Source of the DNA: Octopus vulgaris
Lineage: Eukaryota
Assembly (NCBI GenBank): GCA_951406725.2
Contig: OX597832.1
Span: 67,394,001-67,458,000, forward strand
Direction: 5' to 3'
DNA: 64,000 nt
Under the pieces are notes generated by a model. The model had not been told where the DNA came from. It saw only the letters and a list, made by a program, of their open reading frames with translations, and made no database searches. Numbering within the stretch: position 1 is the first letter of the stretch; each line of letters opens with the position of its first letter. The position numbers and the translations under genes are program-made. This document shows, piece by piece, positions 4,837 to 63,399 of the stretch.

Positions 4837-5140
4837 GTCTGTAAGCCACGCTTAAGTTTACATTCATCGTTGGACACCTTTCGATACTACTGAATCTGTG
4901 GCTTATCTAGCAAATTGAACTTCTCTTTATCGATGGATTCTCAGCTATTATAATACATTACGTAATTACACGCTTCTCATCATTCTGTCTAGCCAATTTA
5001 TAGTATGTTTCAGCTTGCTATACTTCGTACCCTCATGGAACTTTTATAAATAAAGCTATATATATATACGCGTATATATATATGTACATAAATGCATTGC
5101 TTACATGCATATATACATACACGCACACACACTCACCTAT

Positions 5141-5257
<117 letters not shown>

Positions 5258-6066: not shown

Positions 6067-6098
<32 letters not shown>

Positions 6099-9109: not shown

Positions 9110-9505
9110 AATTCTACTCTAGGCACAAAGCCCAAAATTTTGGAGAAGGGTGGGGGGCAGTCAATTAGATCGACTCCAATATGCCACTGGTACTTAATTT
9201 ATCGATCCCGAAAGGACAAAATGCAAAGTCGACTTTGGCGGAATTTGAACTCAGAACATAAAAACAGACGAAATACCCATTTCTTTACTACCCACAAAGG
9301 GTTAAACACAGAGAGGACAAACAAGGACAGACAAACGGATTAAGTCGATTACATTGAGCCCAATGCGTAACTGGTACTTAATTTATCGACCCCGAAAGGA
9401 TGAAGGGCAAAGTCGACCTCGGCGGAATTTGAACTCAGAACGTAACGGCAGACGAATTACTGCTAAGCATTTCACCCGACATGCTAACGTTTCTGCTAGC
9501 TCGTT
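9110..9505 (-). mobile_element. Two nested/tandem tRNA-derived SINEs; the second carries a Tx1-like 3' tail
   Basis: Core ggcggaatttgaactcagaac (reverse B box) at ~9237 and ~9421. Tail ttctttactacccacaaagggttaaacacagagaggac at ~9281-9318. Confidence 0.8.
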
Positions 9506-10409: not shown

Positions 10410-10616
10410 TTAAAGGCACAAGGCCGGAAATTTGAGGGAAGGGGACTAGTTGATTTCATCGACCCCAGTGTTTCACTGGCACTTAATTCATCGACCCCGA
10501 AGGGATGAACGACAAAGTCGACCTCGGCGGATTTTGAACTCATAACTTAAAGACATATGAAAACCTGCTAAGTATTTTGCCTGGCACGCTAACGATTCTG
10601 CCCACTCACCGCCTTT
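10410..10616 (-). mobile_element. tRNA-derived SINE
   Basis: Same core (tcgaccccgaagggatgaacgacaaagtcgacctcggcggattttgaactc) as the copies at 9110-9505 and 25568-26010. Confidence 0.8.
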
Positions 10617-20835: not shown

Positions 20836-21974
20836 CTATGTTTGACTTTTGCTTTATATCTGTACAAGCTGGCTCCAAGTCTCACCCAGAGAGCTCAAGA
20901 GACAACAGGTTGGAAGTTCACGTTGTTGTTATGCTTAAAGTGCCATATATTTGGGTTTCTTTTTTGGTGTTGTACTAGTGAATGTCTAATACATAAATTT
21001 AAAAAAAAGTTTGTTTTAAACTTTGGGATTACATAGAGAGAATTTTGCGTAGGATATGAGCAGTTCCCATGAGCACTATCTTTTGAATTTCTGCCATTTT
21101 GGGGTTTCCTGGTATCTGAGTTAGGTAGCAATCAGCCCCTTTCGCTATCATTCTCAGGGCACCTATGGTATTGTTTTAGTCTTCAGGTTCCACATTTTGC
21201 TGATTTCTGTTTCAAGATCTTTATATTTGCTCAGTTTTTGGTAGGTCTTGGCAGATACGTTCATATCGATTGGGACAGTCATATCAATGAGGAGGCATGT
21301 TCTTTGTCTGAAGTCTTTCAATATGATGTCTGGCCTATTTGCATCTATCTTTCTGTCAGTTTGAATGGTGAAGTTCCAGAGGAGTGAGATGTGGTCATTT
21401 TCAAGCACTAGAGGTGGTTTGAGTTCCCACCAGATTTTTTCATGGGGCAAATCCAGGTTTTTGCAAATTACCCAGTGAATATATTGTGCAGCTCTATCAT
21501 GCCTGTTGAGGTACTCTGTAGGCGCTAGAAGACTGCATTTGGAGACAACATGAACAATGGTTTCATTTTGTTGTCGGCATACACGACATGTTGGGCTACT
21601 GCCGTTCTTTAATATGTTGGCCTGGTAGTTTCTTGTTGGTAGGCATTGATCTTGAGCTGCTATGATAAACCCTTCTGTTTCAGATTTTAAGCCAGAGGCC
21701 ATTAGCCTTTGATGGGTCAGGGCTTTGTCAATATCTGCATTATTCGCTCTCTTTGGGTATTTGCCATAGAGAGGTTTTTCTTGCCATTTATTATTCAGAA
21801 TATCTAAGGCCGCAGTTTTGGCACGGGTTTTCAGGAGCCTAGCTTTTTCTGTGCTTATTTCTTGTATGTCTATCTCTAATTCCCGAAATTTGTTGTATTC
21901 GGAAGTCACTTAGATATTCCTTTGCCTGTTTTGTTGCTGAGTATGATGCTTTCTTGTTTTCATGTTTTGAGACA
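20833..21974 (-). mobile_element. 5'-truncated R4/Dong element (zinc finger + RLE + 3' UTR) inserted in (AAT)n
   Basis: ORF 21163-21909 has WQEKPLYGKY, AAQDQCLPTRNY, CRVCRQQNETIVHVVSKC, RHD, NRPDIILKD, LIDMTVP and KLSKYKDL. (AAT)n on both sides. Confidence 0.9.
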
Positions 21975-23497: not shown

Positions 23498-25567
23498 ATG
23501 CATTTATTTATTTATTTATCATTGAATATCACGCAGCCTTGTCCGTAGTAAGTTCTTACGTTTATGTGTGTATGTATGTGTGCGTATGTGCGTGTGTGTG
23601 TATATGTATGTATTTGGACAAGTTTAAGAAATCCATAAACAATTTCCTAATCTTATGAGTTCTTCGAATTTTCTTTGTGTTGTGGTTTAGGGAATTTACA
23701 ATACAATGACGTTAAAGAAGAAAACTAAAGCCTTTTCATTTAAAAACATAGCTATACTGATGCCTACTAGATTATTGTATACTATATTTGTATATTTCCT
23801 TGTATTTTTTAAGGATATTATCTTTATTTTCAATATTTTTAAGTTTTTTTTTATGAATGTGAAATTCTCTTAACTTCTTCTTGTATTGATTTTGCTATGG
23901 CTAATAAAATCTAAATATTTTGTGATCTATTTACATTATATTTTTTTTTACTATTTATGATTATAATTTTCTACATATTTTTCAGATTTATTTTACTCAA
24001 TACTTCGTCATGCGCCAAAGATTATAAACATTTATAAACATTACTGTCTCTTGGAAAGACTCACACGTCGTGTCATAACTATTTCAAGAACGATTTAGTA
24101 ACACTTTATTCACTACGCTCTTAGATGATCATTTTACATAGGAGGAATAACTTATATATTAACGTCATGAGTAAAATATTAAAAAGGTGAAGGTTTCTTA
24201 ACTAAGTTGCTCAATTTATTGGAAATAACAGCAAATTTCTCCTAGATTTGCGCGTTTTTATATTAGGCGTTTGACTTTTGTGCAACGAGAGGGATTTGGA
24301 GAGATAATTCATTAAACGATAAATTTATCCGGCGCCTAAATTGAGACCAGTGTCTATTTTGAGGTCTCAATAATCGGAATTGATACTATGATTAACCAGC
24401 CAAATCACCGATCTCAGAAGAATCTTATCCAGTGTATACGGATGCCCTAAAAGTGGTCTTGGTAAATATTCTTCCACTTATGATAAGGTCTGATCAAAAG
24501 AGAAAAGATGATAGATTTGCAAACAATGTGAGAGTTAAGAACATTTCTCTCCCTTCTCTTTTCCTTACTCTCTCCCTTTCGCTTTTCCCTCTCTCCCTCC
24601 GTCTCTCTCCCTTTCACTTACCCCTCACTCCGTCTTTCCCTTTCTAGTTGTGTTCTTTTCTTTACTTATTAATCAATAGAGTCGTAAAGGTACGTGCCTT
24701 TCTGGTTCCGGTTTTAGACGGAGGATCGTAAAGGCGTGAGGTCGATTTCCGGCGGTGCTTTGTATCATTGAGAGAGACACTTTATTTTACCTTGCACCGG
24801 TCCACTCATCTGGCAAAAATGAGTTGTACGTGCATTTCAAAGAGTTCGCCTTGTAACATTCTGTGTCACGCCGAATCTCCCTAAAAATCTTCGTTAAGGG
24901 CACGCCTGACAGTGGAATGCTCAGCCACTTGCACATACATTCACGAACATTCACTTGCACATACATTCGTTCATCGTATCAAGTGGGACACGCGTCGTTG
25001 TAACAGACGAAGAGACAAGCCAATAAAAATATATCACGGCTAACATTATTCCCTCTGCGACACATGTTTCTGAGGCTCGTTTTGCCTGCTAACGAAAGAG
25101 TAATTTTGATCTTAATCACGTTATTGATAATGACGATGATGAGGAGGATGAAGATGATGATGATGATGATGATGATGGAAAAGGTAGTGGTTGGGAGGAT
25201 GAGAGTGGTATGGAAGTTGACGAAAGTGACTCGCCAGAGATGAATGCAAAATCATAGTTACTTTAAATGCTGGAGTGGTAGACTTGTTAAAGCAATGCGG
25301 TGCTTTGTTCACTATCTTTCCGTTCAGACTTCGAATCCCACCAGACTTATTTCTACATTTCATCTCTCCGGGTTCGATAAATTAAAGATCAGTAAAATAC
25401 TAGTGTCGATATAATCTCCTATGTTTCTTCACGAAATTTAAAGCTTTGAAATTAACATAAAATTATTATTTTATCATTTGCCGTCGAAGAAAATACTCTG
25501 CTGTATATAGGTCCAAATCACGAGGTTCCGAGTTCACATCCCGCCATCCCAATATTGCTTTCATCTT

Positions 25568-26010
25568 AAGGCGGTGAGCTGGCAGAAACGTTAGCACGCC
25601 GGGCGAAATGCTTAGCAGTATTTCGTCTGTTCTGAGTTCAAATTCCGTCGAGATCGACTTTGCCTTTCATCCTTTTAGAGTCGATAAATTAAGTACCAAT
25701 TGCGTACTAAGGTTGACCTAATCAACTGGCTCCCTCCCCAAAAATTTCGGGCCTTGTGCCTAGAGTAGAAAGGCTTATCATTATAACCATAAAGGCAGCG
25801 AGCTGGCAGAGTGGTTAGCGCTCCTGGGAAAACGCTAAGCGGCATTTGGTCCGTCACCACGTTCTTGGTTCAAATTCTGTCCAGATCGACTTTGCCTTTT
25901 ATCCTTTCGGTGTCGCTAAATCAAGTACCAGTGAAACATTGGGTCGTTGAAATCGACTAGTCCCCTCCCCCACAATTTCAGGCCTTGTATCTTTAGTAGA
26001 AAGGATTATT
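25568..26010 (+). mobile_element. Two tandem tRNA-derived SINEs
   Basis: Heads ggcggtgagctggcagaa... and ggcagcgagctggcagag..., B boxes gttcaaattc, tails ggccttgt...agtagaaagg. Confidence 0.82.
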
Positions 26011-29322: not shown

Positions 29323-29324
<2 letters not shown>

Positions 29325-29345
29325 TAGCAGTATTGCCCGGCTCGT
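29323..29345 (-). mobile_element. Possible Helitron-type 3' terminus
   Basis: Reverse complement gccgggcaatactgCTAGt next to (TA)n resembles the GC-rich subterminal arm plus CTAG end. Only a short stub is visible. Confidence 0.35.
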
Positions 29346-30046
29346 GCGCTCGTGCGTTCTATGCATGCGCGAATTAAGCTAAACTTGGAGGAATTTCAAT
29401 CAAAATTCAATTATTTTGGTTTTAAAATCAAGCATTTAATGCCATCTATTTTTGCGCTGATGTATTCCATTTCCTCAATAGGAAGTACGTAGAAGCATTT
29501 CATAAATTTTTGTTGATCAAATAATTGCATTGTTGAATTATTCTTTTAGATCAGTATTTCTCAACGGGGATTTCTGTGGAGAGTTTCAGGGAGTCACTGG
29601 CGATGTATCGTATTGATCAAAAATGCGGCCTACTTAAATTTGGTTAAAGTGATTCAAACTGCAGACTCAACGCAAAATGGTCACATTTAATTCAAAGCGT
29701 TAAAAATGTTATGAAAACAATTGGTATGTGTTCACAAAGTCCAAACGATTAATATGAAAAAACCCTCCAAGCCACATCCCGAAAATTCATTTCTTTGCCG
29801 AATTTCAAATTCTTTATTACCCACTAGGGGCTACATAGACAAGAACATGACAATCACGAATGATGATACAATAAGATGCTTTGTGGGATCAATTTAAAAA
29901 TTTGACTGAACAATAAAATCGAATGAAATTACAATTACAATTACAAAGACACATTTACAAATTGACAGAATGCAGTGGGGCGGGTCCGCGGACCCCACGC
30001 TCCCCGCCACGACACTTAGACTTGTGTTTACTTTTTTTTTCCAGGT

Positions 30047-33000
30047 CTATCTCGCATTTGTGAGGGACCTTTTATTCGCCACATTCTTCCACCTTTCATC
30101 GAACACTTTCTTACTCAGGCTCCTCCTCTCCAGTTCTATTTGTCTTTTCAGGTGGAATTTAAAGTATTCCACCAGACTAGAACCGGAGATGAAGTCGCCT
30201 GTTAGCATCCCTTTCACCCGCGTCTTCCATACTGCCTGTTTCGCAATTGAAACCACAGAGAGAAAACAATTCTTACCTTCTTTCGTTAAGAAATCAGGTG
30301 GGCTGATTTTCACAATGGATTCGGCTGATAGCTGTACTCTTCCTCCACTTGACATCAGTTGTTCGGCATAAACCCACATGTCTGTCACCTCCGGGCACCG
30401 CACGATCGCGTGCGAGACGGTTTCCCTGTCTCGCCCACATCTCGCGCAGGTCGGGCAGACTGGGGCACCATGCCTTGCAAGTTTATCCCGAACAGGTAAG
30501 GCTCCTCGGTAACACTGCCAAGCCAAAGACTTCTGGGAATTATCCAGTGCCTTCGGCCCGAATGTACGTTGGAACAGACTGGCCAGCTGATTATCGTCGA
30601 AACCTAGGGTTTCCCCTAGCGTATCATCGTTACCGGCCTCTACAAAACCTCTATAAAACACAGCGGTAGAACCACTGCCGCAGGCATTGCCCGAGCGACG
30701 GAATAGTCGGAGTGCCTTGCGGCACTCCGTGTACCATGTACCCAACTTCGATCTACGATTATACCAGTCTTCCCGTCCACCGAAACTGGTGAACCTGGGA
30801 AACATCTGCTTCGCCAGCGGAGACCACACCCGTTCACCATCCAGATGGAGCCACAGGTGTCTTAGCCTCAGCGCATTTCTGCGCATCATTAGCCACGGCA
30901 TCCCTAGTCCACCCTGTAACGGTTTTTGACAACAAATAGAGCGTTTCACAAGTGGTTTCGAGCCCTTCCACAAAAAGTGAAAGAGCTGTCTCTCCAACTT
31001 GTTCAACCACGAATCCGGGCAAGGCACGACGGCAAGGCGGTAGGTGATCACCGATGCGATAAACACATTGGCTACCTCCGCCCTACCTTTCAGGGATAAC
31101 CACCGCCAAGACCAGGTCTTGACTACTGCGGTCACCCTGCTCGATACCTCGCTCCAGTTCTTCTCTATTTGGAGGCCTGGTCCAAACCAGACCCCGAGCA
31201 ACTTAATCGGGCCCTCCGTCCAACGTCCCACGACGCTGTCTGGAGGCATCGACTTGCCTCTCCAGGTGCCGAGTTGCAAGCCGACTGACTTTTCACGATT
31301 AACCTTTGCTCCTGTCACCGTCTCGTAAACCTCTATGGCCTTGCCTACTTTACGTAGGAGGTCCATTTCGGTCACGATGATAGTGATGTCATCCGCGTAC
31401 GCCGAAACCGACATTCCACGACCTGGCTGCCTCGGGATGCCACTCAGTTTTCGCAGCAGCGGCTCGAGAGCCACTACATACAAAAGCGGGGAGAGCGGAC
31501 ATCCCTGACGGAACAAGCGTTTGACCTTGAACGGCTTAGAAATAAAGCCGTTCACCCGAACTACCGAGTCGACGTTGTCATACAATTCTATGATCCACCT
31601 GAGGAAGCCAAGACCCAGGCCGAACTGAGCCAGGACGGACACCAGGTAACGATGGTCGACCCTATCGAAAGTTTTTGACTGGTCTAAATGGACCACTGCC
31701 TCTCCCTTGCCGGCATCGTTATCCATTCCCTCTATCGTGTATCTAATTAGATGGAGATTATCCTGAATGGTTCTGCCCGGTACGGCGCACGTTTGCGCTT
31801 TCCCGATCAGTCCATTCGCGACAGGCGCCAATCTGATCGATAACACTTTGGCCAAAATCTTCAACTCTGCGTTAAGCAGAGTGATGGGCCTGAAATTATC
31901 AATGACGTCCCCCTTGCTCTGGTCCTTCCTGACTAGTGTCACCACTCCCCGGTTCACAGATCTGGGTATGAACCCATTCTGCTGCCAGTTCGCGTAGACG
32001 TTCGCCAGTAAGTCCCCGAACAAGTCCGGCATACTTTTAAAGAGCTCGTAGGGCAGACCATCCAGCCCCGGCGCCTTACCCGCACCGCAGTCTGCCATGG
32101 CCTCTATTACCTCCTCAGGCGTGATCGGCTTCTCACTACACTCCGCGTCCTGCCCCGAGAGCCGCGGCAGTCCGTCAAGGAGGTCCGTAAGGTCCCTCCT
32201 CTCATCCGGCCCGCCGCCACCCCCAAAGAGCTGGGCGAAGTGGTCCTGAAAAGCTTGACACATCTCCTCGGGCTCGTCTGTCAACTTACCTTGTTGGTTC
32301 GTCAGAGATCGAATTGTGGCATCGTTGCCACGTTGGGCTTCCACCACTCGGGCCCATCTCGCGGCATTAATTCCTTCGCTCCCCATTGTACGTTGTCTAG
32401 CTCTGACAATGCAACCCATGTGTTTGGCTTCGAGGTGCTGGTTTAAAACCAGTCTCTTGGCCTTCACCTGAGCCGCGTTGCCAGTTCGCATTGCTTCCTC
32501 TAGGTCCTTAACTAGAGTAGTTTCTTTTCTAGCCTCTCTAGCTACGAGATCTATACTATATCTAATGGACTCATATCTTATGGCTCGCTTGAGGGCATAC
32601 CACCATTTGTTATTGATAATGGAGCCGGTCATGGCCCTCTGGATCATTAACCTAATCCTGTCACTGTACTCCTTAATCGCCAAAAGGGACGTATTAAGTT
32701 TCCAGTAACCAGGACCTCTATTTATCTTATCTACGTCTAGCTTACAGGTGACCATCTTGTGGTCACTGTAGCTGACTATGTGGAGCTGTGGACTCTTAAC
32801 TAGGTTTCTATCTACCTTCCTAATTAAAATCCTGTCTATGTATGACCTTGACGATCCGTCGCTGTTTGTCCATGTCCACAATGGAGCGTCCGGATGTTCC
32901 AGTCTATATGGATCTACCAGCTCAAAACGTCTTAGTAGATCCAGGAAGCAAGCATTTCCTTTCCTGTCTGTTTGCGAGCCTACACAGTCTACCCGCACAT

Positions 33001-33439
33001 TGCAGATTGTGTTGTAGTCTCCTAACATTACTAAAGGGCACGATGTACTGAGAAACTTCTCCAGGTTCCGAAAATACTCACTATTCCCTTTATTATTGGG
33101 GGCGTAAACCGCAACCAGTCTGATTGTCTTACGACTGCTGAACGTCAAATCAACGACGACCAGCCTACCTTCTGGATTTGCAAAAATCAACTTTTTCCCA
33201 GAAACCCGGTTCTTTTTCACCAGGACAAACACCCCACTTCCGCCGACCGACGGGTTCGGAGAGATAATTCTCTCGTAACCGTCGAACAGCGGGAGCAGAT
33301 CTCTTGGCCCTTTTAACCGGGTTTCTGTGGCAACATCAACATCTAAATCCCGTGACCTGATGTCATTTAGGAAGCGCCCTTGCTTCCGGCTCGCCATCAG
33401 GCCACGCACATTTACGCATCCTACACAAATACGAGACAT
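30047..33439 (-). CDS. ORF2 polyprotein: APE endonuclease + reverse transcriptase + C-terminal zinc finger (1130 aa)
   Basis: APE motifs NVRGL, ATETRL, VYAPN, LGDYN, IDRIL, SDH. L1/Tx1 linker GPGYWKLNTSLL. RT motifs APGLDGL, RPITLLN, DQSKTFDRVDH, RQGCPLSP, YADD. Zinc finger CARC...ETVSHAIVRC. No stops. Confidence 0.96.
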   Translation of the reverse strand: MSRICVGCVNVRGLMASRKQGRFLNDIRSRDLDVDVATETRLKGPRDLLPLFDGYERIISPNPSVGGSGVFVLVKKNRVSGKKLIFANPEGRLVVVDLTFSSRKTIRLVAVYAPNNKGNSEYFRNLEKFLSTSCPLVMLGDYNTICNVRVDCVGSQTDRKGNACFLDLLRRFELVDPYRLEHPDAPLWTWTNSDGSSRSYIDRILIRKVDRNLVKSPQLHIVSYSDHKMVTCKLDVDKINRGPGYWKLNTSLLAIKEYSDRIRLMIQRAMTGSIINNKWWYALKRAIRYESIRYSIDLVAREARKETTLVKDLEEAMRTGNAAQVKAKRLVLNQHLEAKHMGCIVRARQRTMGSEGINAARWARVVEAQRGNDATIRSLTNQQGKLTDEPEEMCQAFQDHFAQLFGGGGGPDERRDLTDLLDGLPRLSGQDAECSEKPITPEEVIEAMADCGAGKAPGLDGLPYELFKSMPDLFGDLLANVYANWQQNGFIPRSVNRGVVTLVRKDQSKGDVIDNFRPITLLNAELKILAKVLSIRLAPVANGLIGKAQTCAVPGRTIQDNLHLIRYTIEGMDNDAGKGEAVVHLDQSKTFDRVDHRYLVSVLAQFGLGLGFLRWIIELYDNVDSVVRVNGFISKPFKVKRLFRQGCPLSPLLYVVALEPLLRKLSGIPRQPGRGMSVSAYADDITIIVTEMDLLRKVGKAIEVYETVTGAKVNREKSVGLQLGTWRGKSMPPDSVVGRWTEGPIKLLGVWFGPGLQIEKNWSEVSSRVTAVVKTWSWRWLSLKGRAEVANVFIASVITYRLAVVPCPDSWLNKLERQLFHFLWKGSKPLVKRSICCQKPLQGGLGMPWLMMRRNALRLRHLWLHLDGERVWSPLAKQMFPRFTSFGGREDWYNRRSKLGTWYTECRKALRLFRRSGNACGSGSTAVFYRGFVEAGNDDTLGETLGFDDNQLASLFQRTFGPKALDNSQKSLAWQCYRGALPVRDKLARHGAPVCPTCARCGRDRETVSHAIVRCPEVTDMWVYAEQLMSSGGRVQLSAESIVKISPPDFLTKEGKNCFLSVVSIAKQAVWKTRVKGMLTGDFISGSSLVEYFKFHLKRQIELERRSLSKKVFDERWKNVANKRSLTNAR

Positions 33440-33600
33440 TTACTTACCTTTATGTCGGTGTCCCTGTTGGTCGGGGGGGTGAAGTCCGCTTTAATAAGTG
33501 ACTCGTGTACATCGAGCCGCGGACCCCTTATGTCCCCTGAATACTGCGCATTTAAAATATTAAAGTTTAGCAAATCCATTTTGTATATTTCTACATTTTT

Positions 33601-34992
33601 TTAAAATTTTCTGTGCGTTTGTATTTTTTCAGCGGTTGGGATGTTTCCCATCCCGCTGCTTAAACTGTCGTTGTCTTTGTTGATGGCTGCATAAACTACT
33701 TGGAACTCCGTGATTTTCTTTTGGGGGCTTTGTGGGGGTGATGGGGAGAAGGGGGAGGAGGAGTTTGGGGAGGAGCACGGGGAGGTCATTTGGAGGGGAG
33801 GGTAATGTATGGTACTGTGGGGTGGGGGTGATTCGTGTTGGTCTGGGGGGGTCTTATCTTTTTTTTCCTTTTGTGGAGAACCGTGTTTGGGTGGGGTGGG
33901 TTTCCCCCCCTGGGTGTTACTCTTTTTTGTATTATGGTTGGGTATATTTACGTCCGTACTTTTTCTTTTTTTCATTTTTCTGGGTTTCACGAAATCGTCA
34001 TCCCCCTCTTGTTTCTTTCCTTCTTCTGTTTCCGTCGTTTTCTTCCTCCTCTCCTCTTCTTCAGCTTTTTTCCTTGCTTCTTCTTCTTCTTTCTTGCGGG
34101 TGGGGCATTCTGCTCGGATGTGGCCCTTTTCTCCACACCCGTAGCATCTGGGCTTACGCCCTTCGACCACCACCCGCAAGTTTATTTCGTCGTCGAAATT
34201 AATGAATTCAGGCACCTCCTCTAACGTTTCCGGCGCCGCTTGCACTATTATTTGTAGTGCTTGTCCCTTCCAATTCTCCTTCTGGGTTCTGACGATGTCT
34301 ATAATGTTGATTTTTTCTTTCAGTCCCATAAATAGGGCTGGAATGAGGCTTTCTACCTCAATTTCTGGTAGTATGTCGTCTATTTTGATTTTTATTGTTC
34401 TTCTTCCCATATACGAGGGGAGAAGAATTATATCTGTTGATTTTAGAGGGTTGATCGAGTGTTTCCTCGCCTGTTCCTCCTCTTTAAAGTAAACCATTAT
34501 GGTTGCATACTTCTTACCCCATGTAACGAAATCAATGTCTGTCCATATTGGTTTGAGACACTTTTCAGCCTGCTCCTTTGTTATTTTTTCTATTTTTCTT
34601 TCCTTAATTACAAAAGATTTAAAAATTACCGCTTTCTTCATGGTGCTGGTTTTTATTTCTTGTGGGAGGGTGGCTTTTATGTTGTTCCCCTCCCTTTTGT
34701 ACCTGTCCTTGTATTTGTCGTAATCAATGTCCTCTGGTAAAATATGTTCGGTTTTTCTGCCGGCTGCGGCTGCGAAGTTAACCGTTTTTTTCACGTTTTC
34801 AACTGCTGGTACACTTGTTTTCGAATTTTCTGCTTTCATCATATTTTTTTCCTGTGTAGGTGAACCTACAATATTTTTTTCCTCCTTTGTAGGTGAACCT
34901 ACAATATTTTTTTCCTTTGTAGGTGAACCTACAATATTTTCTTTTTTTGAAGGTGAACCTTCATTGGCAAAATGTTCAACTGTTTTTTCCAT
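33601..34992 (-). CDS. ORF1 Gag-like nucleic-acid-binding protein with CCHC zinc knuckle
   Basis: CYGCGEKGHIRAEC knuckle; lies directly upstream of ORF2; ATG at 34992. The frame stays open past the TAA to 33421. Confidence 0.88.
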   Translation of the reverse strand: MEKTVEHFANEGSPSKKENIVGSPTKEKNIVGSPTKEEKNIVGSPTQEKNMMKAENSKTSVPAVENVKKTVNFAAAAGRKTEHILPEDIDYDKYKDRYKREGNNIKATLPQEIKTSTMKKAVIFKSFVIKERKIEKITKEQAEKCLKPIWTDIDFVTWGKKYATIMVYFKEEEQARKHSINPLKSTDIILLPSYMGRRTIKIKIDDILPEIEVESLIPALFMGLKEKINIIDIVRTQKENWKGQALQIIVQAAPETLEEVPEFINFDDEINLRVVVEGRKPRCYGCGEKGHIRAECPTRKKEEEEARKKAEEEERRKKTTETEEGKKQEGDDDFVKPRKMKKRKSTDVNIPNHNTKKSNTQGGKPTPPKHGSPQKEKKDKTPPDQHESPPPHSTIHYPPLQMTSPCSSPNSSSPFSPSPPQSPQKKITEFQVVYAAINKDNDSLSSGMGNIPTAEKIQTHRKF

Positions 34993-35217
34993 TTTCACAC
35001 AAATGGATTTTTTTTTTGTTAGATTGTGTCAAAACACACAATATATTTCACACTATTTCCCCTCCTTAAAGGAGGGGAATAACAAAATTTTCCTGGTTCA
35101 AAAACCAGTTAAAGTTCAGTATAACAATTTAACAAACAATTTTTAAACAAACAATTTCAACACAATTTTAACAATATTTTAGCTCACGTGAAAAAACACC
35201 ACCGACTCCTTCAAAAA

Positions 35218-36977
35218 TTCTTTGCCGAATTTCTGATTTTTTATTACCCACTAAGGGGCGACACAGAGGGGGACAGCAAAAGACATGGGGACATAGAACA
35301 TTATAATTAAACTTTATGAACATGAATTGTTAAACGAAAAAAATGATAAAATGAAAGCGATACCAACGGCCCCGTCCGTCAGCATCACTTACTTGTCCTT
35401 TGTTTTTCATAGTCACTTGAATGTTCTTTGCCAATACGAATAAATTCCATATCCATTCTTACTCCGAAATACTCATCCATATTTTCCACGAATTCATCGC
35501 TCATTCTTATATCTTTCACCTCCCAATTCTCCCTTTCACACCTCCCCATAAACTCACCTATGTTCTTCTTTTCAATCACAGCATACCTAGTCTCTCCAAC
35601 ATCATACCATTTATACTCTTCCATTAGACTTTTAACTTCTTTCTGTTCAGTCATAGTACAAATGTACGGCCTGGGTTCGCTTTCAATCTCTTGTGTGTGT
35701 GTATTCTTTTTTTCTTTTGTTTTCTTGTTGGGGGGAGCGGGTGGGCTCAATGTCTGCATGGATAGGGTGGGACTCAGAGGGTGTGGGTGGTTTTGGGGTA
35801 GATTGGAGTTCCATATTATTTTCTTTTCCACGTATTCTTCTCCTCCTCTTACTTCCAGCTTCCTTCCATTTCTGTGTATTCTCTTCCTCTGTTTCCTTCT
35901 CCTCTGGTTTCTGCTTCTCTCTCTCTGGTTCGGAATCCATTTCTTTCCCTGGGGGAGGGCAGAAGGCTCTTATGTGACCCCTCAGGCCACACTTGTAACA
36001 ACGTGGAGCCCTGCCCTCCACCCACACTCTCATGATCACGTCTCCCAGTCTGATGCTTTCCGTCAGGTCCACCAGTACCTCGGTCTCTGCCTGTACGTTC
36101 AGCTCCACTGTTACGCCTCTCCAGCCCTCGGACTTAACCGAGGCATGGAGAATATCCACCTCGTCCTCGTGGCCGCTGATCACAGCCGCCACAATCCATT
36201 CTGCCTCCACGTTTGGTGGCACTCCCTCCACCCTTATTCGTGTAATCCTCCTGTTTAAATACGTAGGTAATAGGGTTACCTTTTCTGACTTCACCGCCTT
36301 CGCCGCCATCTTCCTCGCTGCAGACTCAGTTTTGAAATGCACAACTACGGTACCGTACTTGGATCCTCGAGTCAGAAAATTTATTTCCTCCTCAGTTCTT
36401 CGCAGGGCTTCCTCTATCCATTCCATGGTTACAACTTCTACCCTCTTCCTTTCGTTTGCGAACACCCTGTAAATAATCGTCCTCTTATCATACCATTCTT
36501 TTCTCCTGGGTGTCGGTGATAGTTCCACCTCACCGCTTTCCTTTTTCATGTATTTCTGGTAACTTGCCAACTTGGCCATGTCGACCCTTTTCTCTTCCGC
36601 CTTCTTGGTTACACCGGCATAGGTATAACCCAGCTCATCTTCCAAATTCCTTGCTGCCATTTCTAGCTCCTTCTCAGACGTAGGCAGGTCTGATAAAGAC
36701 TCGAAAACTCCAGCCCTTTCTTCCATCAGCTCCATTGCAATTGCCCGTTCCAGTTCCTCATCTGTCGTGGACAAGTCTGTTAGAGACTCATAGTCCATTT
36801 CCTTTCTGTCTGACAGACCGAAAACGGCCGCCAAAACAGAAAAAGTGTAACGCGCTGAACGAGCGATACGCGAAACCGCGTCAACGCCGTTCAGAATTTC
36901 CACAACAACAACAACGCTTTTTGTTCTTTTTTACCGAATTTTACGAGCGTAAAAAAACACGACCGACTCCTTCAAAA
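35218..36977 (-). mobile_element. Non-autonomous ORF1-only Tx1-related element (HAL1-like), unit 1, 1760 bp
   Basis: Near-identical to 36978-38745. Encodes an ORF1 homologue, has no EN/RT, and shares terminal sequences with the autonomous element. Confidence 0.85.
35385..36798 (-). CDS. ORF1-like CCHC protein of unit 1 (main frame 36798-35683; C-terminal part in a second frame to 35385)
   Basis: CYKCGLRGHIRAFC knuckle. RGSKYGTVVVHF / LLPTYLNRR / VWVEGRAPRC align with WGKKYATIMVYF / LLPSYMGRR / VVVEGRKPRC of the autonomous ORF1. Confidence 0.8.
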
Positions 36978-38745
36978 TTCTTTGCCGAATTTCTGATTTG
37001 ATTTTTTATTACCCACTAAGGGGCGACACAGAGGGGGACAACAAAAGACATGGGGACATAGAACATTATAATTAAACTTTATGAACATGTATTGTTAAAC
37101 GAAAAAAAATGATAAAATAAAAGCGATACCAACGGCCCCGTCCGTCAGCATCACTTACCTGTCCTTTGTTTTTCATAGTCACTTGAATGTTCTTTGCCAA
37201 TACGAATAAATTCCATATCCATTCTTACTCCGAAATACTCATTCATATTTTCCACGAATTCATCGCTCATTCTTATATCTTTCACCTCCCAATTCTCCCT
37301 TTCACACCTCCCCATAAACTCACCTATGTTCTTCTTTTCAATCACAGCATACCTAGTCTCTCCAACATCATACCATTTATACTCTTCCATTAGACTTTTA
37401 ACTTGCCTCTGTTCAGTCATAGTACAAATGTACGGCCTGGGTTCGATTTCAATCTCTTGTGTGTGTGTATTCTTTTTTTTTCTTTTGTTTTCTTGTTGGG
37501 GGGGAGCGGGTGGGTTCAATGTCTGCATGGATAGGGTGGGACTCAGAGGGTGTGGGTGGTTTTGGGGTAGATTGGAGTTCCATATTATTTTCTTTTCCAC
37601 GAATTCTTCTCTTCCTCTTACTTCCAGCTTCCTTCCATTTCTGTGTATTCTCTTCCTCTGTTTCCTTCTCCTCTGGTTTCTGCTTCTCTCTCTCTGGTTC
37701 GGAATCCGTTTCTTTCCCTGGGGGAGGACAGAAGGCTCTTATGTGACCCCTCAGGCCACACTTGTAACAACGTGGAGCCCTGCCCTCCACCCACACTCTC
37801 ATGATCACGTCTCCCAGTCTGATGCTTTCCGTCAGGTCCACCAGTACCTCGGTCTCTGCCTGTACGTTCAGCTCCACTGTTACGCCTCTCCAGCCCTCGG
37901 ACTTAACCGAGGCATGGAGAATATCCACCTCGTCCTCGTGGCCGCTGATCACAGCCGCCACAATCCATTCTGCCTCCACGTTTGGTGGCACTCCCTCCAC
38001 CCTTATTCGTGTAATCCTCCTGTTTAAATACGTAGGTAATAGGGTTACCTTTTCTGACTTCACCGCCTTCGCCGCCATCTTCCTCGCTGCAGACTCAGTT
38101 TTGAAATGCACAACTACGGTACCGTACTTGGATCCTCGAGTCAGAAAATTTATTTCCTCCTCAGTTCTTCGCAGGGCTTCCTCTATCCATTCCATGGTTA
38201 CAACTTCTACCCTCTTCCTTTCGTTTGCGAACACCCTGTAAATAATCGTCCTCTTATCATACCATTCTTTTCTCCTGGGTGTCGGTGATAGTTCCACCTC
38301 ACCGCTTTCCTTTTTCATGTATTTCTGGTAACTTGCCAACTTGGCCATGTCGACCCCTTTCTCTTCCGCCTTCTTGGTTACACCGGCATAGGTATAACCC
38401 AGCTTCTCTTCCAAATTCCTTGCTGCCATTTCTAGCTCCTTCTCAGACGTAGGCAGGTCTGATAAAGACTCGAAAACTCCAGCCTTTTCTTCCATCAGCT
38501 TCATTGCAATTGCCTGTTCCAGTTCCTCATCTGTCGTGGACAAGTCTGTTAGAGACTCATAGTCCATTTCCTTCTGTCTGACAGACCGTAAACGGCCGCC
38601 AAAACAGAAAAAGTGTAACGCGCTGAACGAGCGAAACGCGAAACCGCGTCAACGCCGTTCAGAATTTCCACAACAACAACAACGCTTTTTGTTCTTTTTT
38701 ACCGAATTTTACGAGCGTAAAAAAACACGACCGACTCCTTCAAAA
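36978..38745 (-). mobile_element. Non-autonomous ORF1-only Tx1-related element, unit 2, 1768 bp
   Basis: Tandem duplicate of unit 1 with scattered substitutions and homopolymer indels. Confidence 0.85.
37151..38567 (-). CDS. ORF1-like CCHC protein of unit 2 (main frame 38567-37449; C-terminal part in a second frame to 37151)
   Basis: 372-aa ORF nearly identical to unit 1, overlapped by a 149-aa downstream frame. Confidence 0.8.
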
Positions 38746-38829
38746 TTCTTTGCCGAATTTCTGATTTTTTATTACCCACTAAGGGGCGACACAGAGGGGG
38801 ACAACAAAAGACATGGGGACATAGAACAT
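38746..38829 (-). mobile_element. 3' fragment of a third ORF1-only unit
   Basis: Junction motif plus attacccactaaggggcgacacagagggggacaacaaaagacatggggacatagaacat, then an abrupt switch to mariner-like sequence. Confidence 0.85.
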
Positions 38830-39474
38830 GTCATCTTTGGTGCTAGAAGGAAATGTTTTGGTCTCTCGCTCAACTGCGCCCTACGCATAATAATCAGTTG
38901 TGTTGCAGTCTGGTGAGTTGGTGGCCAGATGTTAGGGGTGATGTGGTTGCAGAAATTGTTTGATATCCATGAAAGGGTCATCCTGCTTGTATGGCATGGT
39001 GCAGAGTCCTGTTGCCAGACTTAGGGTCTTCCAGAAGCCACCCTCTTGACGCATGGCAGCACTACCTCCTCAAGGCATTTCATGTAAGTACCCCCGTGTT
39101 TTGAGTGAAGTTGTGTGGAAAGATGAATGGAGGTATAACGTCGCTGTCACTAGTGATCACTCCAAACACCATAGTTTTGACTGAATGTTTTACCTTTATT
39201 ACTCTCGATACATGTGCTCGGATTGCAATGTCCACCGATTGACACCCAAACACTCTGAAATCATCCTATTGGAGATTCCGGTGCGAATGCCAATCACTAT
39301 AGCATGCGGTTCCTCATTTCTGGCTGAGTGAATTGCGATATGGTGCTCTTTTAATTACTGACGGTGCCCTGCTGACCCTATTATACTGTGTAGCCGTCAA
39401 AATCAAATACAAACAATGCACATGCGCGATATGAAATATATAACATGGTGACAATTTACCCATTGTACACTGTA
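38830..39474 (-). mobile_element. Degenerate Tc1/mariner-superfamily transposon fragment with one probable terminus
   Basis: Minus-strand translation WQQDSAPCHTSR...NFCNHITPNIWPP followed, after a frameshift, by an SPDCN-like motif. Candidate TIR (ta)cagtgtacaatgggtaaattgtcaccat at ~39445-39474. Confidence 0.7.
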
Positions 39475-46835: not shown

Positions 46836-47661
46836 CTCCCTCTCTCTCTCACTCTGAGTCTCCCTATATATATTACATATATATATATATATGAGGTAAC
46901 TTCTTTCCATTGTTCAGGTGGCTTGCACACCTCAATGTCAACTGTAATTTAACCTTGAACATCTCGAACTCAATTAACTGTTCATTAATATTTCAATCAC
47001 TTTCTGGAGAAAGCAAACACAAAACATCTCAAATTAAATCAATCGTACGTAAATAGACACACACGCTCACAGCCACACGCGCATGCGTGAATGCATTCTC
47101 ACATACACACATAGACGCATATTAGATATTTTGGTTTCTCCCAGTCAATCATCTGAATTCATTTCTGAAATACATTCATAGTCTTTCATTGGTAATGCAT
47201 TTCTTTGCATATATAAATGTGAAATATTTCCGGTCAACTTCATTTTGGAGCTCGAAGTAAGGTATAGGATAATGCTGAAGCATTCAACTTCAAGTCCATC
47301 GTGCCTTATAGGAGAAACAACTGTAAACTAATGCAGCTCATATTACGTTTGTTTTGCTATTGTAATTGTTTGTAAACACGCCCACACATACATGCATTAC
47401 ATGCAAAAACACACGCACACTCATATATATATATGTGTTTATATATAGCAATAATAATTCTCTAAATGAGATATAGACAGTGACTGCTCCATAATATAAG
47501 GGATATTAGCCAACTGAATATGGCTAGGGACAGGGCAGGGTGGTGGGGGTGTCACTGTTGCATTTAGCCCCAGGCGAACATCAACGTCACCAGATAGGCC
47601 GACGCCATCACGGCGTCCTCTATCTTGCAAAGGGAGATCATTCACCAACAAGCGGATACAA

Positions 47662-47707
47662 CACACGGACCTAGGTTTCAAGGTGTATTGCCTATTATCA
47701 ACGTGTG
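47662..47707 (-). ncRNA. Minimal type-I hammerhead, U3-A8 core variant (unit 1)
   Basis: Reverse complement: cacacg-TTGATAA-t-agg[caataca]cct-t-GAA-acctaggt-C-cgtgtg. Confidence 0.72.
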
Positions 47708-48017
47708 GTAGGCATCGCTTCTCGATGAACGACCAACAGTGCAAGATATATATAAGGATTTTCAAGTAAATACATTTACTGATTTCGAAAATCCGTTCGA
47801 CAGCAATAATAATTCTCTAAATGAGATATAGACAGTGACTGCTCCATAATATAAGGGATATTAGCCAACTGAATATGGCTAGGGACAGGGCAGGGTGGTG
47901 GGGGGTGTCACTGTTGCATTTAGCCCCAGGCGAACATCAACGTCACCAGATAGGCCGACGCCATCACGGCGTCCTCTATCTTGCAAAGGGAGATCATTCA
48001 CCAACAAGCGGATACCA

Positions 48018-48063
48018 CACACGGACCTAGGTTTCAAGGTGTATTGCCTATTATCAACGTGTG
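48018..48063 (-). ncRNA. Minimal type-I hammerhead, U3-A8 core variant (unit 2)
   Basis: Identical motif to 47662-47707; stem I can be extended (tacca/tggta). Confidence 0.72.
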
Positions 48064-48290
48064 GTAGGCATCGCTTCTCGATGAACGACCAACAGTGCAA
48101 GATATATATAAGGATTTTCAAGTAAATACAATTACTGATTTCAAAAATCCGTTCGACAGCAATAATAATTTTCTAAATGAGATATAGACAGTGACTGCTC
48201 CATAATATAAGGGATATTAGCCAACTGAAAATGGCTAGGGACAGGGCATATATTTATAAATACACACACACTCATATATATATATATATA

Positions 48291-48509
48291 TTTCTTTACT
48301 ACCCACAAGGGGCTAAACACAGAGGGGACAAACAAGGACACACAAGGGGATTAAGTCGATTACATCGACCCCAGTACTTAATTAACGACCCCGAAAGGAT
48401 GAAATGCAAAGTCGACCTCGGCGGAATTTGAAACCAGAACGTAACGGCAGACGAAATACCTCTAGGCATTTCGCCCGGTTTGCTACCGATTCTGCTAGCT
48501 CACCGCCTT
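48291..48509 (-). mobile_element. tRNA-derived SINE with Tx1-like 3' tail
   Basis: tttctttactacccacaaggggctaaacacagaggggacaaacaaggac, then the SINE core, then the head end gctagctcaccgcctt. Confidence 0.82.
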
Positions 48510-53231: not shown

Positions 53232-55351
53232 TATATATTCAACCACGTGCTTTCACACACCAACTTTCTCACCTATATATAAAACACGTGAGACCGAAAA
53301 TGCCGCAGAAGACTAATACCTCGGATAAAACTACAAATGAAGACATACTTAAAGAACTTAAAAGTATTAATGCACAACTCATTACCTTAAATAACAAAAT
53401 CGAGGACTCAAATCTACTCGCCCGGGAAAGGAAAAACAGTGAAGACACAACTCGCTACACTGACTAGGTTAGTAATGATTTACAACTGTTATACACAACA
53501 CTAAATTCAATTTTCATTAACAAATCCGACAATAAACAACACACACCAAATGAAACACACCAGGACATACGCACTCAAATCAACCCAACAAAAAGAAAAA
53601 TAGGAAACATTTGGAATACAAACCTGCACAATAGAAAACTCGCCTTCTGGAACATGATAAAAGATTCCAACAAAGCAGATATATACGAGGGATGGATGAA
53701 CGCAACTTCAATTATCCTCCCACGCAAATTCCAGATAAAAATAATACCCAACGAACCTGACGGACAGAGAACTATTAGGGAATGGTCAGCTCTATCCAAT
53801 TTAAAATCAGAAATAGAACTACTAAAACTTAGGGCCTCCACAAATGAGAAAAAATATAAAAGCATCGACGAGGAGATGCACAATGAAATACAAAAACAAA
53901 CAGAGGGACAACCCCTCGAAAATACACTAAATCGTTGGAAGGAAACCTAGGAAAAAAGCAACGATTTCTTCCAAAGATATGCGTCAATTTTCAAAAATGA
54001 ATTGGGTACAGATAATCCCTTTCTTAAGAAAATTACAAAAAATAAAAAATAAAACCGAACAACCCACAAACCACCCCCAACTATCCTCCATACACTAGAA
54101 ACAGAATTCACCCACAACCAACATTTTCGAACCACGCAAGACTTAACAGGAAACAAGCTGACAGACAATGCGTCTATGAAATAGATTACACCAAAAACAG
54201 AACACACCAACAATATCCTAATACCAGACCCAACCACCACATAACAGCACAAAGCAACACCAGAATAAGAAATACACCACACACAAGTCGCTACTACCCC
54301 ATGAACCAAAATTACTGGTCCCCACCGAACACAAGACAAACGCAAAAAAACACTAAGTCAAGCAACATCCCACATACAAGCAATTCGAAACAAAAATATT
54401 TCACATACAGACATTTTACACACACCACAAACGAAAACAACCATAGATTCCCACACACACACAACAATCGGAGGCAACAATACCACCGTTCCCCCGATCC
54501 AATATCACACAACCTCACAGACAACTCATACAAACAAAATTACACCCAACATTTTTTAGCCCGGGACCAGAGACACCAGGACACAGGCTGGAACCTAGTA
54601 ATAAGGAAAAACCGAAGATAATCAACCTTTCAACCAAACCTCACTCTAACATAAAAATTGACATCCTCTCAAAAGGGCTCAAATTTACGCCAACTCCACG
54701 CAGAGCCAACCTAAATGAAATCAAGGATAATATAACAGAATTCTGCTGAAAATTAAGACTAGCAGAAGCATCAACCAGTTTCAATACTGAAGATGAATTA
54801 CTAGTCAAGAACAAAAGTGAACACATCCCCCACAAAGGAAGAAATAAAGATCTTGACGAATTCTGCAGCCACATTGAGAACTTTCCCTACCATGCTATAC
54901 ATAAACAGACAGTTAACTCATATTTTAACACTACACAGTGGAAGGAACTGATATAAGTTCAAAATGAAGATATAACCATTAAGGAAGCAGACAAAGGAAG
55001 TGCAGTTGTAATAATGGATACATCATACTATAGAAATCTTGTAATTTCCTTGCTTGATGACAATCAACATTATGAAAAAATCACCAACTACACTCCGCAA
55101 AAAATAATGAAAACTATCTTCACTAATTAAAACCCATGAAAAGGAACTAACAACCAAAGAGATTGACTTTCTAACAAACTTTAAAGGCAAGCCTCTTCTA
55201 TGGACTGCCAAAAATACATAAAAGCCAAATTATAAATGAAACCATTAAAAAATCACCAAAGACATACATACACACACCTAACTCGGGGGACCTAAAACTA
55301 CGACCCATTGTAGCTGGCCCAACCTGTGAAACACACATATTAAGTCTATTT

Positions 55352-55957
55352 ATGGACATCCTCCTGAAACCCTTCCTTAAACATATCGATAGCCATATCA
55401 CAGATGACTTGGATATGTTAAACCGCCTTCCAAAAAAAGTCAAGGAAGAAATAATCATGGTTTCATTTGATGTAGTTAATTTATATACCAGTATAGCTCA
55501 TAATTATGGATTAGAGGCAATACAGTTCTGGCTGGACCAATTTCCGGCAGAAATACCAAAAATGATCAGTAAAGAATTCATTACTAAATCGGTTGAATTC
55601 ATCCTACATAATAACCACTTCATGTTTGACAATACATTTTACTGTCAACAATCCGGAATTGCTATGAGTACAAGGGCAGCACCAGTCATTGCGAACCTAA
55701 CAATGGGCTACCTGGAAATAATTGTTTACCAGGAATCTTCATCAACCTTTGGAAACCCCCTCTCTCAATACATAAAAGAGAATTGGAAACGATTCCTGGA
55801 CGATTGTTTTATACTCTGGAATGAAAACACAGATAAACTCCTAAAATTCAAAAACCTATTGAACGGCATCAACCCAAATATACAGTTCACAACGGAATAC
55901 AACCAAAAGGAGCTTCCATTCTTAAATATACTAATTAAAAAATTAACCTTAAAATAG
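55352..55957 (+). pseudogene. PLE reverse-transcriptase core fragment
   Basis: SFDVVNLYT, SGIAMSTRAAPVIANL, WKRFLDDCF. Confidence 0.88.
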
Positions 55958-56394
55958 AAACATACATTTTTTTACAACGCCACAGACTCCAAACAATACC
56001 TACTATTTGATTCATGCCACCCAAGACACACTAAAACAGACATCCCTTTCAACCTTGCAAGAAGGATATGCACAATAGTGTCAGAACTAAATACCAGAAA
56101 CTTTAGACTACAAGAACTCAAAAACACCCTAATTGACAGACACTACCCAGCTCAACTCATAGAGGATGGGATCAGACGTGCAACAGAATTCAACACAACA
56201 ACACACCTTCCCCGAAAATACTGCCTTACATATCCACATACAACCCCATAAACAAAGAAGCCTTCACCATCATCACCCACAATTTACCAATACTTCATAA
56301 GGACCCCAAATTAAAGGAATTTCTAAACATACATAAAATCATTAAAAGCTACAAACAACCTAAATCACTTAAAAAGATTCTCACAAAGGCAAAA

Positions 56395-56856
56395 TTGCTT
56401 TCTGAAATTACGGTTGCAAAAGTAAAAAAATGTGGTAGACCAAATTGCGCAACATGCCCAAAACTTCTAGCAGGATCAGAATTCTTCTTCAAAGAGGGAC
56501 AAAAATTCAAGAGCAAATCTAATTTTACTTGTGCTTCTGAAAACATAATTTATGTCATAAGATGCTCGGGCTGCCACCAAAACTACGTGGGGTTCACGGG
56601 ACTATCACTCAGATGTAGATGCACACTGCATCGACAACAGATTGCATTCCTAGAATATAGAATGATACCCTTTAGTGAGCATATTGAGAAATGCGCAAAG
56701 CAACTACTACCACAATTTTTAATCTTTCCATTTTATCAATGTGCTATTGGAACACCAACACAAATTAGACTAAACAAGGAAACATTCTTCATTGAAAAAT
56801 ATAAGCCCAAACTTAACCACTCTAACATTCTTACACAGAGAAACTCACCCCATTAA
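56395..56856 (+). pseudogene. PLE GIY-YIG endonuclease fragment
   Basis: CGRPNCATC...FTCASENIIYVIRCSGCHQNYVGFTG...RCTLH...KETFFIEKYKPKLN. Confidence 0.88.
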
Positions 56857-60900: not shown

Positions 60901-61997
60901 AAAATATCTACTTCAGAAGGAAGGAAAACTGATACAAATAGCGGCAAAACACGAGCAAAACAAAAAACTGTTCTCAGTATTTAAGGAAGCTGACAAATAC
61001 AAACAAGAAATCATACCACCTAATAAATATGAAGAAGAAGAAGAAGAAGAAGAAGAAGAAGAAGAAACAACAAAAGCTATAAAACAACTGAAATCCAAAC
61101 AAAAAATAAAACAGCGACGAACCATGATAAAACGATGGCAAGAAAAGCCCGTGCGTGGTAAATACTGGACTAAACTTAACGCAAAATAAATAGACAAAGA
61201 AAAATCCCAGCAATGGTTGAGAAGCTCAGGACTCAAAGCAGAGACAGAGGGATTTTTAATTGCAGCACAAGACCAAAGCCTCCCTACCAGAAATTACAAA
61301 AAAAATATGTAATGAAAAGAAATATAACAAGTAACTGCAGAATATGTGGAGATGGACAAGAAACAATAAATCATATTATCTCTGGCTGCCCAGTCCTGGC
61401 TAAGAAGGAATATATTCACAGACATGACAGAGTTGGAACCTACATACACTGGAAGCTATGCCAACATTATGGAATAACAACAGAAAAAAGATGGTATAGG
61501 CGCACACCAGAAAAGGTCACAGAAAACGAGAAAGCAACCATACTCTGGGATATGCCGATACACACAGATAGAGAAATTAAGGCCAACAGACCAGATATAG
61601 TTGTCAGAGATCATGAAGAAAAAAAATGGTTTCTAATTGATGTATCAATACCGGCAGATGACAAAGTGTCTCTGAAAGGAATGGAGAAACTTTCAAAATA
61701 CAATGACCTGGAAATAGAGGTAACCAGAATGCGGAATCTAAAAAGAGAAACAATTCCTATCATAGTAGGTGCATTAGGCATGATAAAAAATATTCAGACA
61801 AATACATAACAAAAACACCAGGACTTACAAACACATATAACATACAGAAAATTGCACTACTAGGCACTGCACACATCCTACGCAGAACACCTTCCATACA
61901 ATAACCATCAGAGCATCACAACAAATCACAGCACATACCTAAGGCACACAGAGCTGCGCTCGGTTGTGAAGTGAAAGCACGCTATAAAATAAAACTA

Positions 61998-62613: not shown

Positions 62614-62711
<98 letters not shown>

Positions 62712-62712
<1 letters not shown>

Positions 62713-63266: not shown

Positions 63267-63336
<70 letters not shown>

Positions 63337-63399
63337 TTAATGAACAATGTAATAGTACATGTGAATGGCTCTGCAGCCTGAAGCAAGCAGCTTCTTATC

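Follow-up and report, generated by a model that had tools for sequence, protein, structure and literature searches.

On the minus strand of a 64,000-nucleotide stretch of the Octopus vulgaris genome (GenBank assembly GCA_951406725.2, contig OX597832.1, forward-strand positions 67,394,001 to 67,458,000; hereafter the window), short retroelement units that encode open reading frame 1 (ORF1) only were found in a head-to-tail array with one autonomous element. The short family was designated S, the autonomous family of the window A, and the target repeats X and Y; the contig of the window is C19, and names in the style of C1 to C30 denote contigs of the same assembly. As judged from its sequences, S is an ORF1-only retroposon family of its own under purifying selection. 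It was considered probable that S is long-lived, that its RNA is copied by the endonuclease (EN) and reverse transcriptase (RT) of several Tx1-type elements, and that new copies land singly, at or immediately next to the 5' end of an element resident in a target repeat, chains growing in the 5' direction.

In minus-strand order the window holds a 62-bp S tail fragment, S unit 1, S unit 2 and an autonomous element of family A. The 16-mer GAAATTCGGCAAAGAA starts at 38761, 36993, 35233 and 29806, and the resulting periods of 1768, 1760 and 5427 bp agree with a preliminary description of the stretch, which had listed a 3' fragment followed by units of these lengths. The features were placed as follows.

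38768..38829, minus strand: S tail (3' fragment of 62 bp), 5'-truncated; blastn 98% to S positions 1673-1734
38746..38761, minus strand: 16-bp target-site duplication, copy 1 (GAAATTCGGCAAAGAA, derived from repeat X)
37005..38745, minus strand: S unit 1, ORF1-only, with tail CCCC..GTGGGTAATAAA
38567 (ATG) to 37151 (end of C-terminal domain), minus strand: ORF1 of S unit 1, with a homopolymer frameshift inside 37467-37512
36978..36993, minus strand: 16-bp target-site duplication, copy 2, with a doubled AAATC tail end before it
35240..36977, minus strand: S unit 2, ORF1-only
36798 (ATG) to 35385 (end of C-terminal domain), minus strand: ORF1 of S unit 2, with a homopolymer frameshift inside 35701-35743
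35686..36798, minus strand: main frame of S ORF1 (unit 2), with N-terminal helices, two predicted RRM-like domains and a CCHC knuckle
35218..35233, minus strand: 16-bp target-site duplication, copy 3, at the S-to-A junction
29807..35217, minus strand: autonomous L1-group element of family A, Tx1-type by its architecture
33601..34992, minus strand: A ORF1 (CCHC), with an in-frame stop at 33601-33603, the frame running on to 33421
30047..33439, minus strand: A ORF2, 1130 amino acids (aa), with APE endonuclease, RT and zf-RVT (Pfam; PDB comparison)
29791..29806, minus strand: 16-bp target-site duplication, copy 4, downstream
29323..29806, minus strand: downstream part of repeat X, 92% to X positions 331-810, ending CTAG/T at 29323
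38830..39300, minus strand: decayed transposase remnant (putative Tc1/mariner-like, from translation), where the upstream part of X was expected

In the alignment of S unit 1 with S unit 2, 1711 positions are identical, 22 are mismatched and 5 are gaps. DNA similarity of S with A was confined to the first 26 and last 28 bases, and the ORF1 cores of the two were 36% identical as protein over 207 aa (E 1e-43), in keeping with the homologous but diverged ORF1 first described. The Pfam domains Exo_endo_phos (EN), RVT_1 (RT) and zf-RVT were found in A ORF2 and in neither S unit, as had been stated. The array had also been said to contain no intervening host DNA; its head-to-tail arrangement stood, but each junction carries the 16-bp duplication of target X. 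The reading frames were corrected as well, both window S ORF1s being frameshifted and A ORF1 having an early stop.

The S family was counted with a 26-mer from the C-terminal domain (the S motif), which gave 201 matches at up to one mismatch. Sixty-three regions (1.26 Mb) were read, mainly the best S matches, the first 100 listed motif matches (C1-C17) and the A matches; these covered 143 S ORF1s and 106 exact motif sites of the 201 motif matches, mostly on C1-C17. EN was found behind 0/143 S ORF1s and, in the related family S2, behind 0/44 ORF1s at the fetched loci. The tail lay within 1.3 kb of S ORF1 in 138 of the 143 copies, with a rearranged or variant tail in four and a stretch edge in one. 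A continuous frame of 465-472 aa was present in 21/143; many copies, both window units included, have a frameshift in one C/A homopolymer, and these frameshifts may partly be assembly error. The predicted model of S ORF1 had a predicted local distance difference test score (pLDDT) of 80-90 over residues 71-280, its best Foldseek matches were tandem-RRM proteins (E 5e-5), and a CCHC motif was visible in the alignment. As modelled, S ORF1 is two RRM-like domains followed by a CCHC knuckle.

The ratio of nonsynonymous to synonymous substitution (dN/dS) in the S core, determined on 101 aligned copies, was 0.17 for variants in at least 5 copies, 0.30 for those in 2-4 and 0.72 for singletons; the C-terminal domain gave no purifying signal (0.82 and 2.04, few sites). 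Comparisons between families gave dN/dS of 0.07-0.12 among S, S2 and an S2-like solo, with 0.07-0.08 for S against the S2 families, and 0.09 for T3 against T4 (two further families described below), the synonymous divergence (dS) of S and S2 being near-saturated. Solo S copies are flanked by duplications of 20 bp on C3, 16 bp on C5 (both copies 5'-truncated) and 18 bp on C15, and because of these 16-20-bp duplications and the two truncations they are read as having moved by target-primed reverse transcription. It was considered extremely unlikely that S ORF1 is kept because it restricts autonomous elements for the benefit of the host. Such a role would fit the purifying selection and the excess of S over A (201 motif matches vs 6 loci at ≥92%), but S copies are young (median 2.4% apart), mobile and mostly frameshifted in the assembly, and singleton variants drift near neutrality; this pattern is the one expected of selection on a mobile element rather than a host gene.

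A word-index protein search with S ORF1 gave no match at E 1e-5, and a profile search returned 2235 relatives, as proteins without genomic context. Among named proteins, the closest ORF1 relatives belong to Octopus species and to Argonauta; an ORF1 core of the same genome is matched at 100% identity by one named protein of O. vulgaris. The ESM Atlas gave, as a lead only, CCHC clusters of arthropods and, at 0.90, a cluster of the ZCCHC3 RNA-binding domain.

Besides S, the arrays hold S2 (core about 61% identical to S), S3 (42%), T3 and T4 (34-38%) and autonomous lineages with 83-97% RT identity to A. All of them end in CCCC..GTGGGTAATAA, at least four further ORF1-only families having the same tail as S. 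The order S..S, S2, T, autonomous repeats on several contigs, and the longest chains have 13 units. In the ORF1 tree, from which the distant ORF1 A64 (too short) was left out, an S group (S, S2, S2-like solo; 94/98) and an S3+T group (95/94) were recovered, both apart from nine autonomous ORF1s. Two changes were needed for the ORF1-only origin on this tree; one change was sufficient in 8% of bootstrap trees, and the approximately unbiased (AU) test, computed without two U rows, gave p 0.38. The separately evolving ORF1-only family of the preliminary description was thus upheld by its own branch, its dN/dS and its solo copies with duplications. It is very unlikely that S arose recently by internal deletion from an unsampled autonomous family with the same ORF1. 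Partial sampling of the motif matches leaves some room for such a family, but no autonomous element joining S ORF1 to an ORF2 was found among the 143 loci, and the S/S2 branch, with its near-saturated dS, lies away from the nine autonomous ORF1s. The system is several ORF1-only families with several putative helpers, not a one-to-one pair.

Several further observations were made on these families. The 3' ends of S and S2 comprise several tail types within one ORF1 family, some of them common to different families, and in S2 the C-terminal domain is of two unrelated kinds; together these suggest tail swapping. A SINE-like (short interspersed element) repeat of about 220 bp that shares the tail of these families, CCCC..GTGGG(C/T)AATAAA, occurs at several loci, including L032 after the C7 array, and forms tandems of its own; it may be of tRNA (transfer RNA) or Meta-type origin. 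SINE-like copies in the window (about 9280-9495, 10430-10600, 25322-25930 and 48280-48495) did not match the strict tail pattern. Behind an S array at L041 (minus strand, 324-1502 and 4882-6120) lie three remote ORF1-like frames with 25% identity to S; they have no EN and an unmatched tail, and dN/dS between two of the three was 0.18.

Repeat X is a dispersed repeat of about 800 bp that begins TCTCTATATATAAAA and ends CTAG/T, with a degenerate hairpin. An X 21-mer spanning the 16-mer gave 578 exact matches; among the fetched sites 20/20 were uninterrupted and 19/20 had the same upstream sequence. Solo A elements on C5 and C2 stand between the two halves of X and have the 16-mer on either side, its upstream copy with one mismatch at each locus. 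Since these elements split X at the 16-mer, A is regarded as target-specific and the window S units as lying at its nick site. Family A has 6 loci at ≥92%; the X 16-mer stands at a 3' junction in 6/6, with a duplication of 16 bp. In the window only X positions 331-810 are present and the upstream 330 bp are absent; the remnant in their place we take, from its motifs rather than a domain scan, to be Tc1/mariner-like.

The 3' end of repeat Y has a GACCCG/CGGGTC hairpin and then CTAG/T. Y has 312 empty sites, and its nick point before ACATGGAGG is common to S (solo copies too), T and the A83 lineage. Helitrons are characterized by a 5' TC, a 3' CTAG before T, a subterminal hairpin and dispersal. 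By their ends X and Y are Helitron-like and are putative non-autonomous Helitrons. Among S arrays with a readable 5' flank, 27/31 lie in Y, 1/31 in X and 3/31 elsewhere, and S units occur at 1/6 family-A loci, that of the window. Family A is therefore not the main partner of S, most S arrays being in Y, which is used by A83, a sister lineage of A. The helper and satellite relation first proposed stood as regards the shared tail and the mixed arrays, but not as a one-to-one pair. Small nuclear or ribosomal RNA as the target was not supported, there being no Rfam match in 12 loci around arrays and targets. The arrays are interstitial on many contigs (e.g. C8, at 56.8 of 118.9 Mb).

The best PDB match of A ORF2 was human L1 ORF2p (E 3e-64, vs 6e-21 for R2). 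In A ORF1, zf-CCHC gave E 5.5e-4, just under the Pfam cut-off, and the in-frame stop at 33601-33603, 60 codons early, is present in the C5 copy and missing from the related C2 copy. RRM-type domains with a CCHC knuckle are a mark of Tx1-type ORF1. No named Tx1 reference and no informative names were returned by a homologue search with A ORF2, and for this reason family A, an L1-group element, is called Tx1-type by architecture and target preference. Head-to-tail arrays made up purely of an autonomous element of 5.3 kb were seen on C27 (32.96-32.99 Mb, at least 5 full units) and C30 (10.43-10.45 Mb, at least 4). The autonomous lineages A83Z and A85 (L183, L193, L182, L184, L079-L080) insert at further targets, with duplications of 12-20 bp; target pieces of other families are present in their heads, and some of these elements lie directly upstream of S-type units.

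Of 85 units, 24 had their nearest relative in the same array and 61 in another; the two window units each differ less from a C10 copy (0.67% and 1.14%) than from one another (1.28%). Because the nearest relatives are mostly outside their own array, units would mostly arrive singly from elsewhere in the genome, which also makes duplication in assembly less likely. On C14, a 23-mer with 4 occurrences in the genome stands ahead of each of four S units that have a common truncation point, differ by 1.5, 5.0 and 1.6% and belong to two subfamilies. Most simply, the locus would be explained by successive upstream insertions, in each of which 35-62 bp of flank was duplicated and the new copy paired with the head of the resident. 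Junction starts (n=139) lay a few bases into the leader in 84 cases, further inside in 27 and with upstream target or flank in 28. In S-containing arrays the autonomous element was last in 16/17 cases, a count that stretch edges may inflate.

An A-type leader was found on 6/143 S copies (two X loci and C7). Of the shared ends first described, the 3' tail is common to the families; the 5' start, carried by so few S copies, was not supported as a conserved cis end and is read as a scar of the junction. The window S units probably took their leader from the resident A on arrival, because the closest Y-located copies are without it. The preliminary description had noted neither a target repeat with its site duplications nor a polarity of growth.

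Several results weigh against 5' growth by insertion with the aid of the shared tail. Among long junction spacers, 1/10 matched the local 5' flank exactly; when the ten were inspected by eye, two more were local with one difference, three were Y flanks from elsewhere and four were unmatched. A comparison of first with last S units in 22 arrays revealed no age gradient (p 0.70-0.75), and folding of the tails gave no single conserved hairpin and no common structure. In 16 stretches chosen by autonomous matches, no ORF1-only unit was found within about 4 kb upstream, and in 3/16 an S-type ORF1 or leader lay directly downstream, so that polarity by family is not strict. Finally, near-identical neighbours occur (0.0-0.07% on C4), and divergence is 1.5% within arrays against 2.4% between them. 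For these last two reasons local duplication also contributes, as a minor route beside 5' growth by sequential insertion. It is quite improbable that single insertions grew into arrays mainly through tandem duplication or unequal exchange at the DNA level, and as the main route this is largely refuted: for 61/85 units the closest copy lies in a different array, the arrays mix families that are only 34-61% protein-identical, and most junctions stand at a tail end.

An unlikely alternative is that RNA carrying an upstream flank moves or extends the arrays, either as read-through transcripts or by inserting after the tail of the preceding unit (3' growth). The recurring order of families on several contigs would be expected under this scheme, as would the three long spacers that are Y flanks of other loci and not local; one contig, from a run guessed to be RNA, also joins Y-upstream sequence to an S head. 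The genome-unique C14 flank, on the other hand, precedes units from two subfamilies 5% apart, 84/139 junctions share the same leader point (for which a nick site is a better fit than random truncation), and unit numbers and subfamilies vary between arrays.

An origin of the window tandem as an assembly artefact is of almost negligible probability. Base-level errors are possible given the frequent homopolymer indels in S copies. The two units nevertheless differ at 22 positions, each being closer to a copy elsewhere, and the same array form with unlike units recurs at dozens of loci. S and A are both covered by public contigs, which come from four studies with three organism labels and carry no information on copy number; no contig among them spans the window array, and the window S-to-A junction was not seen in these independent data. 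In contigs of a DNA run under another organism label, tail-to-head joints with Y-flank spacers were found, which argues further against an artefact. No RNA run was among the listed public sequencing runs that carry these sequences.

Passage through RNA was also examined from clustered base changes. A copy was scored as having an A-to-G cluster when it held at least 6 A-to-G changes and these accounted for at least 70% of its rare changes, with the commonest letter per column as reference. Such clusters were present in 7/129 S and 2/38 S2 copies (loci include C3 at about 113.97 Mb, C15 at about 0.80 Mb, C8 at about 64.98 Mb and C5 at about 100.98 Mb). By the same rule none was obtained for T-to-C or G-to-A in the 129 S and 38 S2 copies, and none for A-to-G in 24 ORF2 stretches of autonomous A83. 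In the strongest copy A-to-G made up 34/35 rare changes; in S unit 2 of the window (35240-36977), six of the rare changes are A-to-G and none is T-to-C. Both strands of the assembly carry such A-to-G changes. Their 5' neighbour is seldom G (0.08, vs 0.30-0.36 when it is A or T), and on the 3' side G or C is preferred. Avoidance of 5' G with a preference for 3' G or C matches ADAR. The clusters may be a sequencing error mode in purine-rich tracts; being one-way, they are counted as a sign of RNA passage, and if real they would be RNA edits fixed in the octopus genome.

For growth of the chains by insertion at their 5' end, the following course is proposed. Family A, as its loci show, inserts at one X site with a 16-bp duplication, and the sister lineage A83 uses Y. 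S is without ORF2 and has the shared 3' tail, its own selected ORF1 and the marks of target-primed reverse transcription. The helper ORF2 would recognise the shared tail in trans and nick the upstream duplication or a site near the head of the resident; this putative trans-mobilisation of S by autonomous ORF2 draws on the shared tail and the shared nick sites. The new 5' end would be joined by pairing with the head of the resident, local flank and leader being copied onto the newcomer, which would therefore explain the shared 5' start of the window units. S ORF1 protein would package its own RNA in cis, and selection would maintain this packaging. A wider scheme is doubtful: that the ORF1-only families form an old guild that switches among several Tx1-type helpers and races for the chain head, that their own ORF1 steers the RNA to the 5' end of the resident, that the newcomer takes a promoter from the Helitron-like flank and silences the units behind it, and that ADAR edits are written into germ-line copies.

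Elsewhere in the window, positions 635-1346 and 62646-63357 form an inverted pair of 712 bp (94% complementary, partly microsatellite), and a tandem repeat with a 356-bp period, 2.3 copies and 98% matches lies at 47447-48248. Other retroelement fragments with RT-like and nuclease-like frames were found at 21163-21909, 55175-56856 and 59940-61809; the labels Penelope-like and R4/RTE-like were given to them by eye only.

The system was compared with known ones through excerpts of the cited papers. In Drosophila, HeT-A and further telomeric Jockey elements with ORF1 only form mixed head-to-tail arrays with elements that bear ORF2 (PMC13534243; PMC5786205). As in these passages on HeT-A, the octopus arrays contain ORF1-only members that would depend on the ORF2 of another family, and ORF1-only lineages give rise to further ORF1-only lineages (PMC13534243; PMC5786205). 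Unlike HeT-A, TART and TAHRE, which are Jockey elements at chromosome ends, the octopus elements belong to the L1 group, are interstitial and lie inside a repeat target with duplications. S is not a member of the telomeric HeT-A/TART/TAHRE system.

Bao and Jurka (2010) are cited in connection with HAL1 and Ag-Sponge. HAL1 and Ag-Sponge are termed 'ORF1-present bipartite' derivatives of long interspersed elements (LINEs), non-autonomous elements that encode ORF1p only and keep the LINE ends (PMC5753468; PMC5786205). S likewise encodes ORF1 only and keeps LINE 5' and 3' parts, with the tail in 138/143 copies. HAL1, however, is a derivative of mammalian L1 and Ag-Sponge of CR1, and the consulted portions of these accounts describe no target specificity, stacking, multiple helpers or Tx1 case (PMC5753468; PMC5786205). 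S is in the ORF1-present bipartite class and is not HAL1 proper, having a CCHC/RRM ORF1 and relatives in octopus and Argonauta.

Tx1 elements target non-autonomous DNA transposons in other animals, as excerpted from Kojima 2015 (PMC4494074): Tx1-Mar with SINEU-3 in crocodilians and Tx1 in Tx1D of Xenopus. SINEU-3 and Tx1-Mar use the same site, tandem copies sandwich a duplication and were explained by sequential insertion, and transcription from the flank was proposed for Tx1 elements in DNA transposons (PMC4494074). According to the same excerpt the partner is a non-coding SINE, the target is Mariner, piggyBac or Harbinger, and tandems are described as pairs (PMC4494074), whereas the octopus partners have a selected ORF1, Helitron-like targets and chains of up to 13 units. 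TRE5-A of Dictyostelium inserts region-specifically upstream of a tRNA gene bound by TFIIIB, and the passage seen proposes that its ORF1 protein guides the choice of site (PMC5006619). The octopus likeness is region-specific insertion upstream of a landmark; the TFIIIB-bound tRNA gene as landmark sets TRE5-A apart. In the part of a cephalopod repeat survey that was consulted, expansion of L1-Tx1 is mentioned, and ORF1 or tandems are not (PMC8967140). Among the titles and abstract openings returned by a literature search, which did not cover Repbase, none described this system. The single parts all have precedents, and the system extends known biology and overturns none of it.

The finding bears on why ORF1-only LINEs keep ORF1; in the excerpt from Kojima, their proteins 'likely' multimerise with helper proteins (PMC5786205). 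With several ORF1-only families, several putative helpers and defined targets together in one genome, outside telomeres, the role of ORF1 could be tested directly, and action in cis, guidance of site choice and competition with the helper could be separated. Polar arrays, if true, would record the order of insertion.

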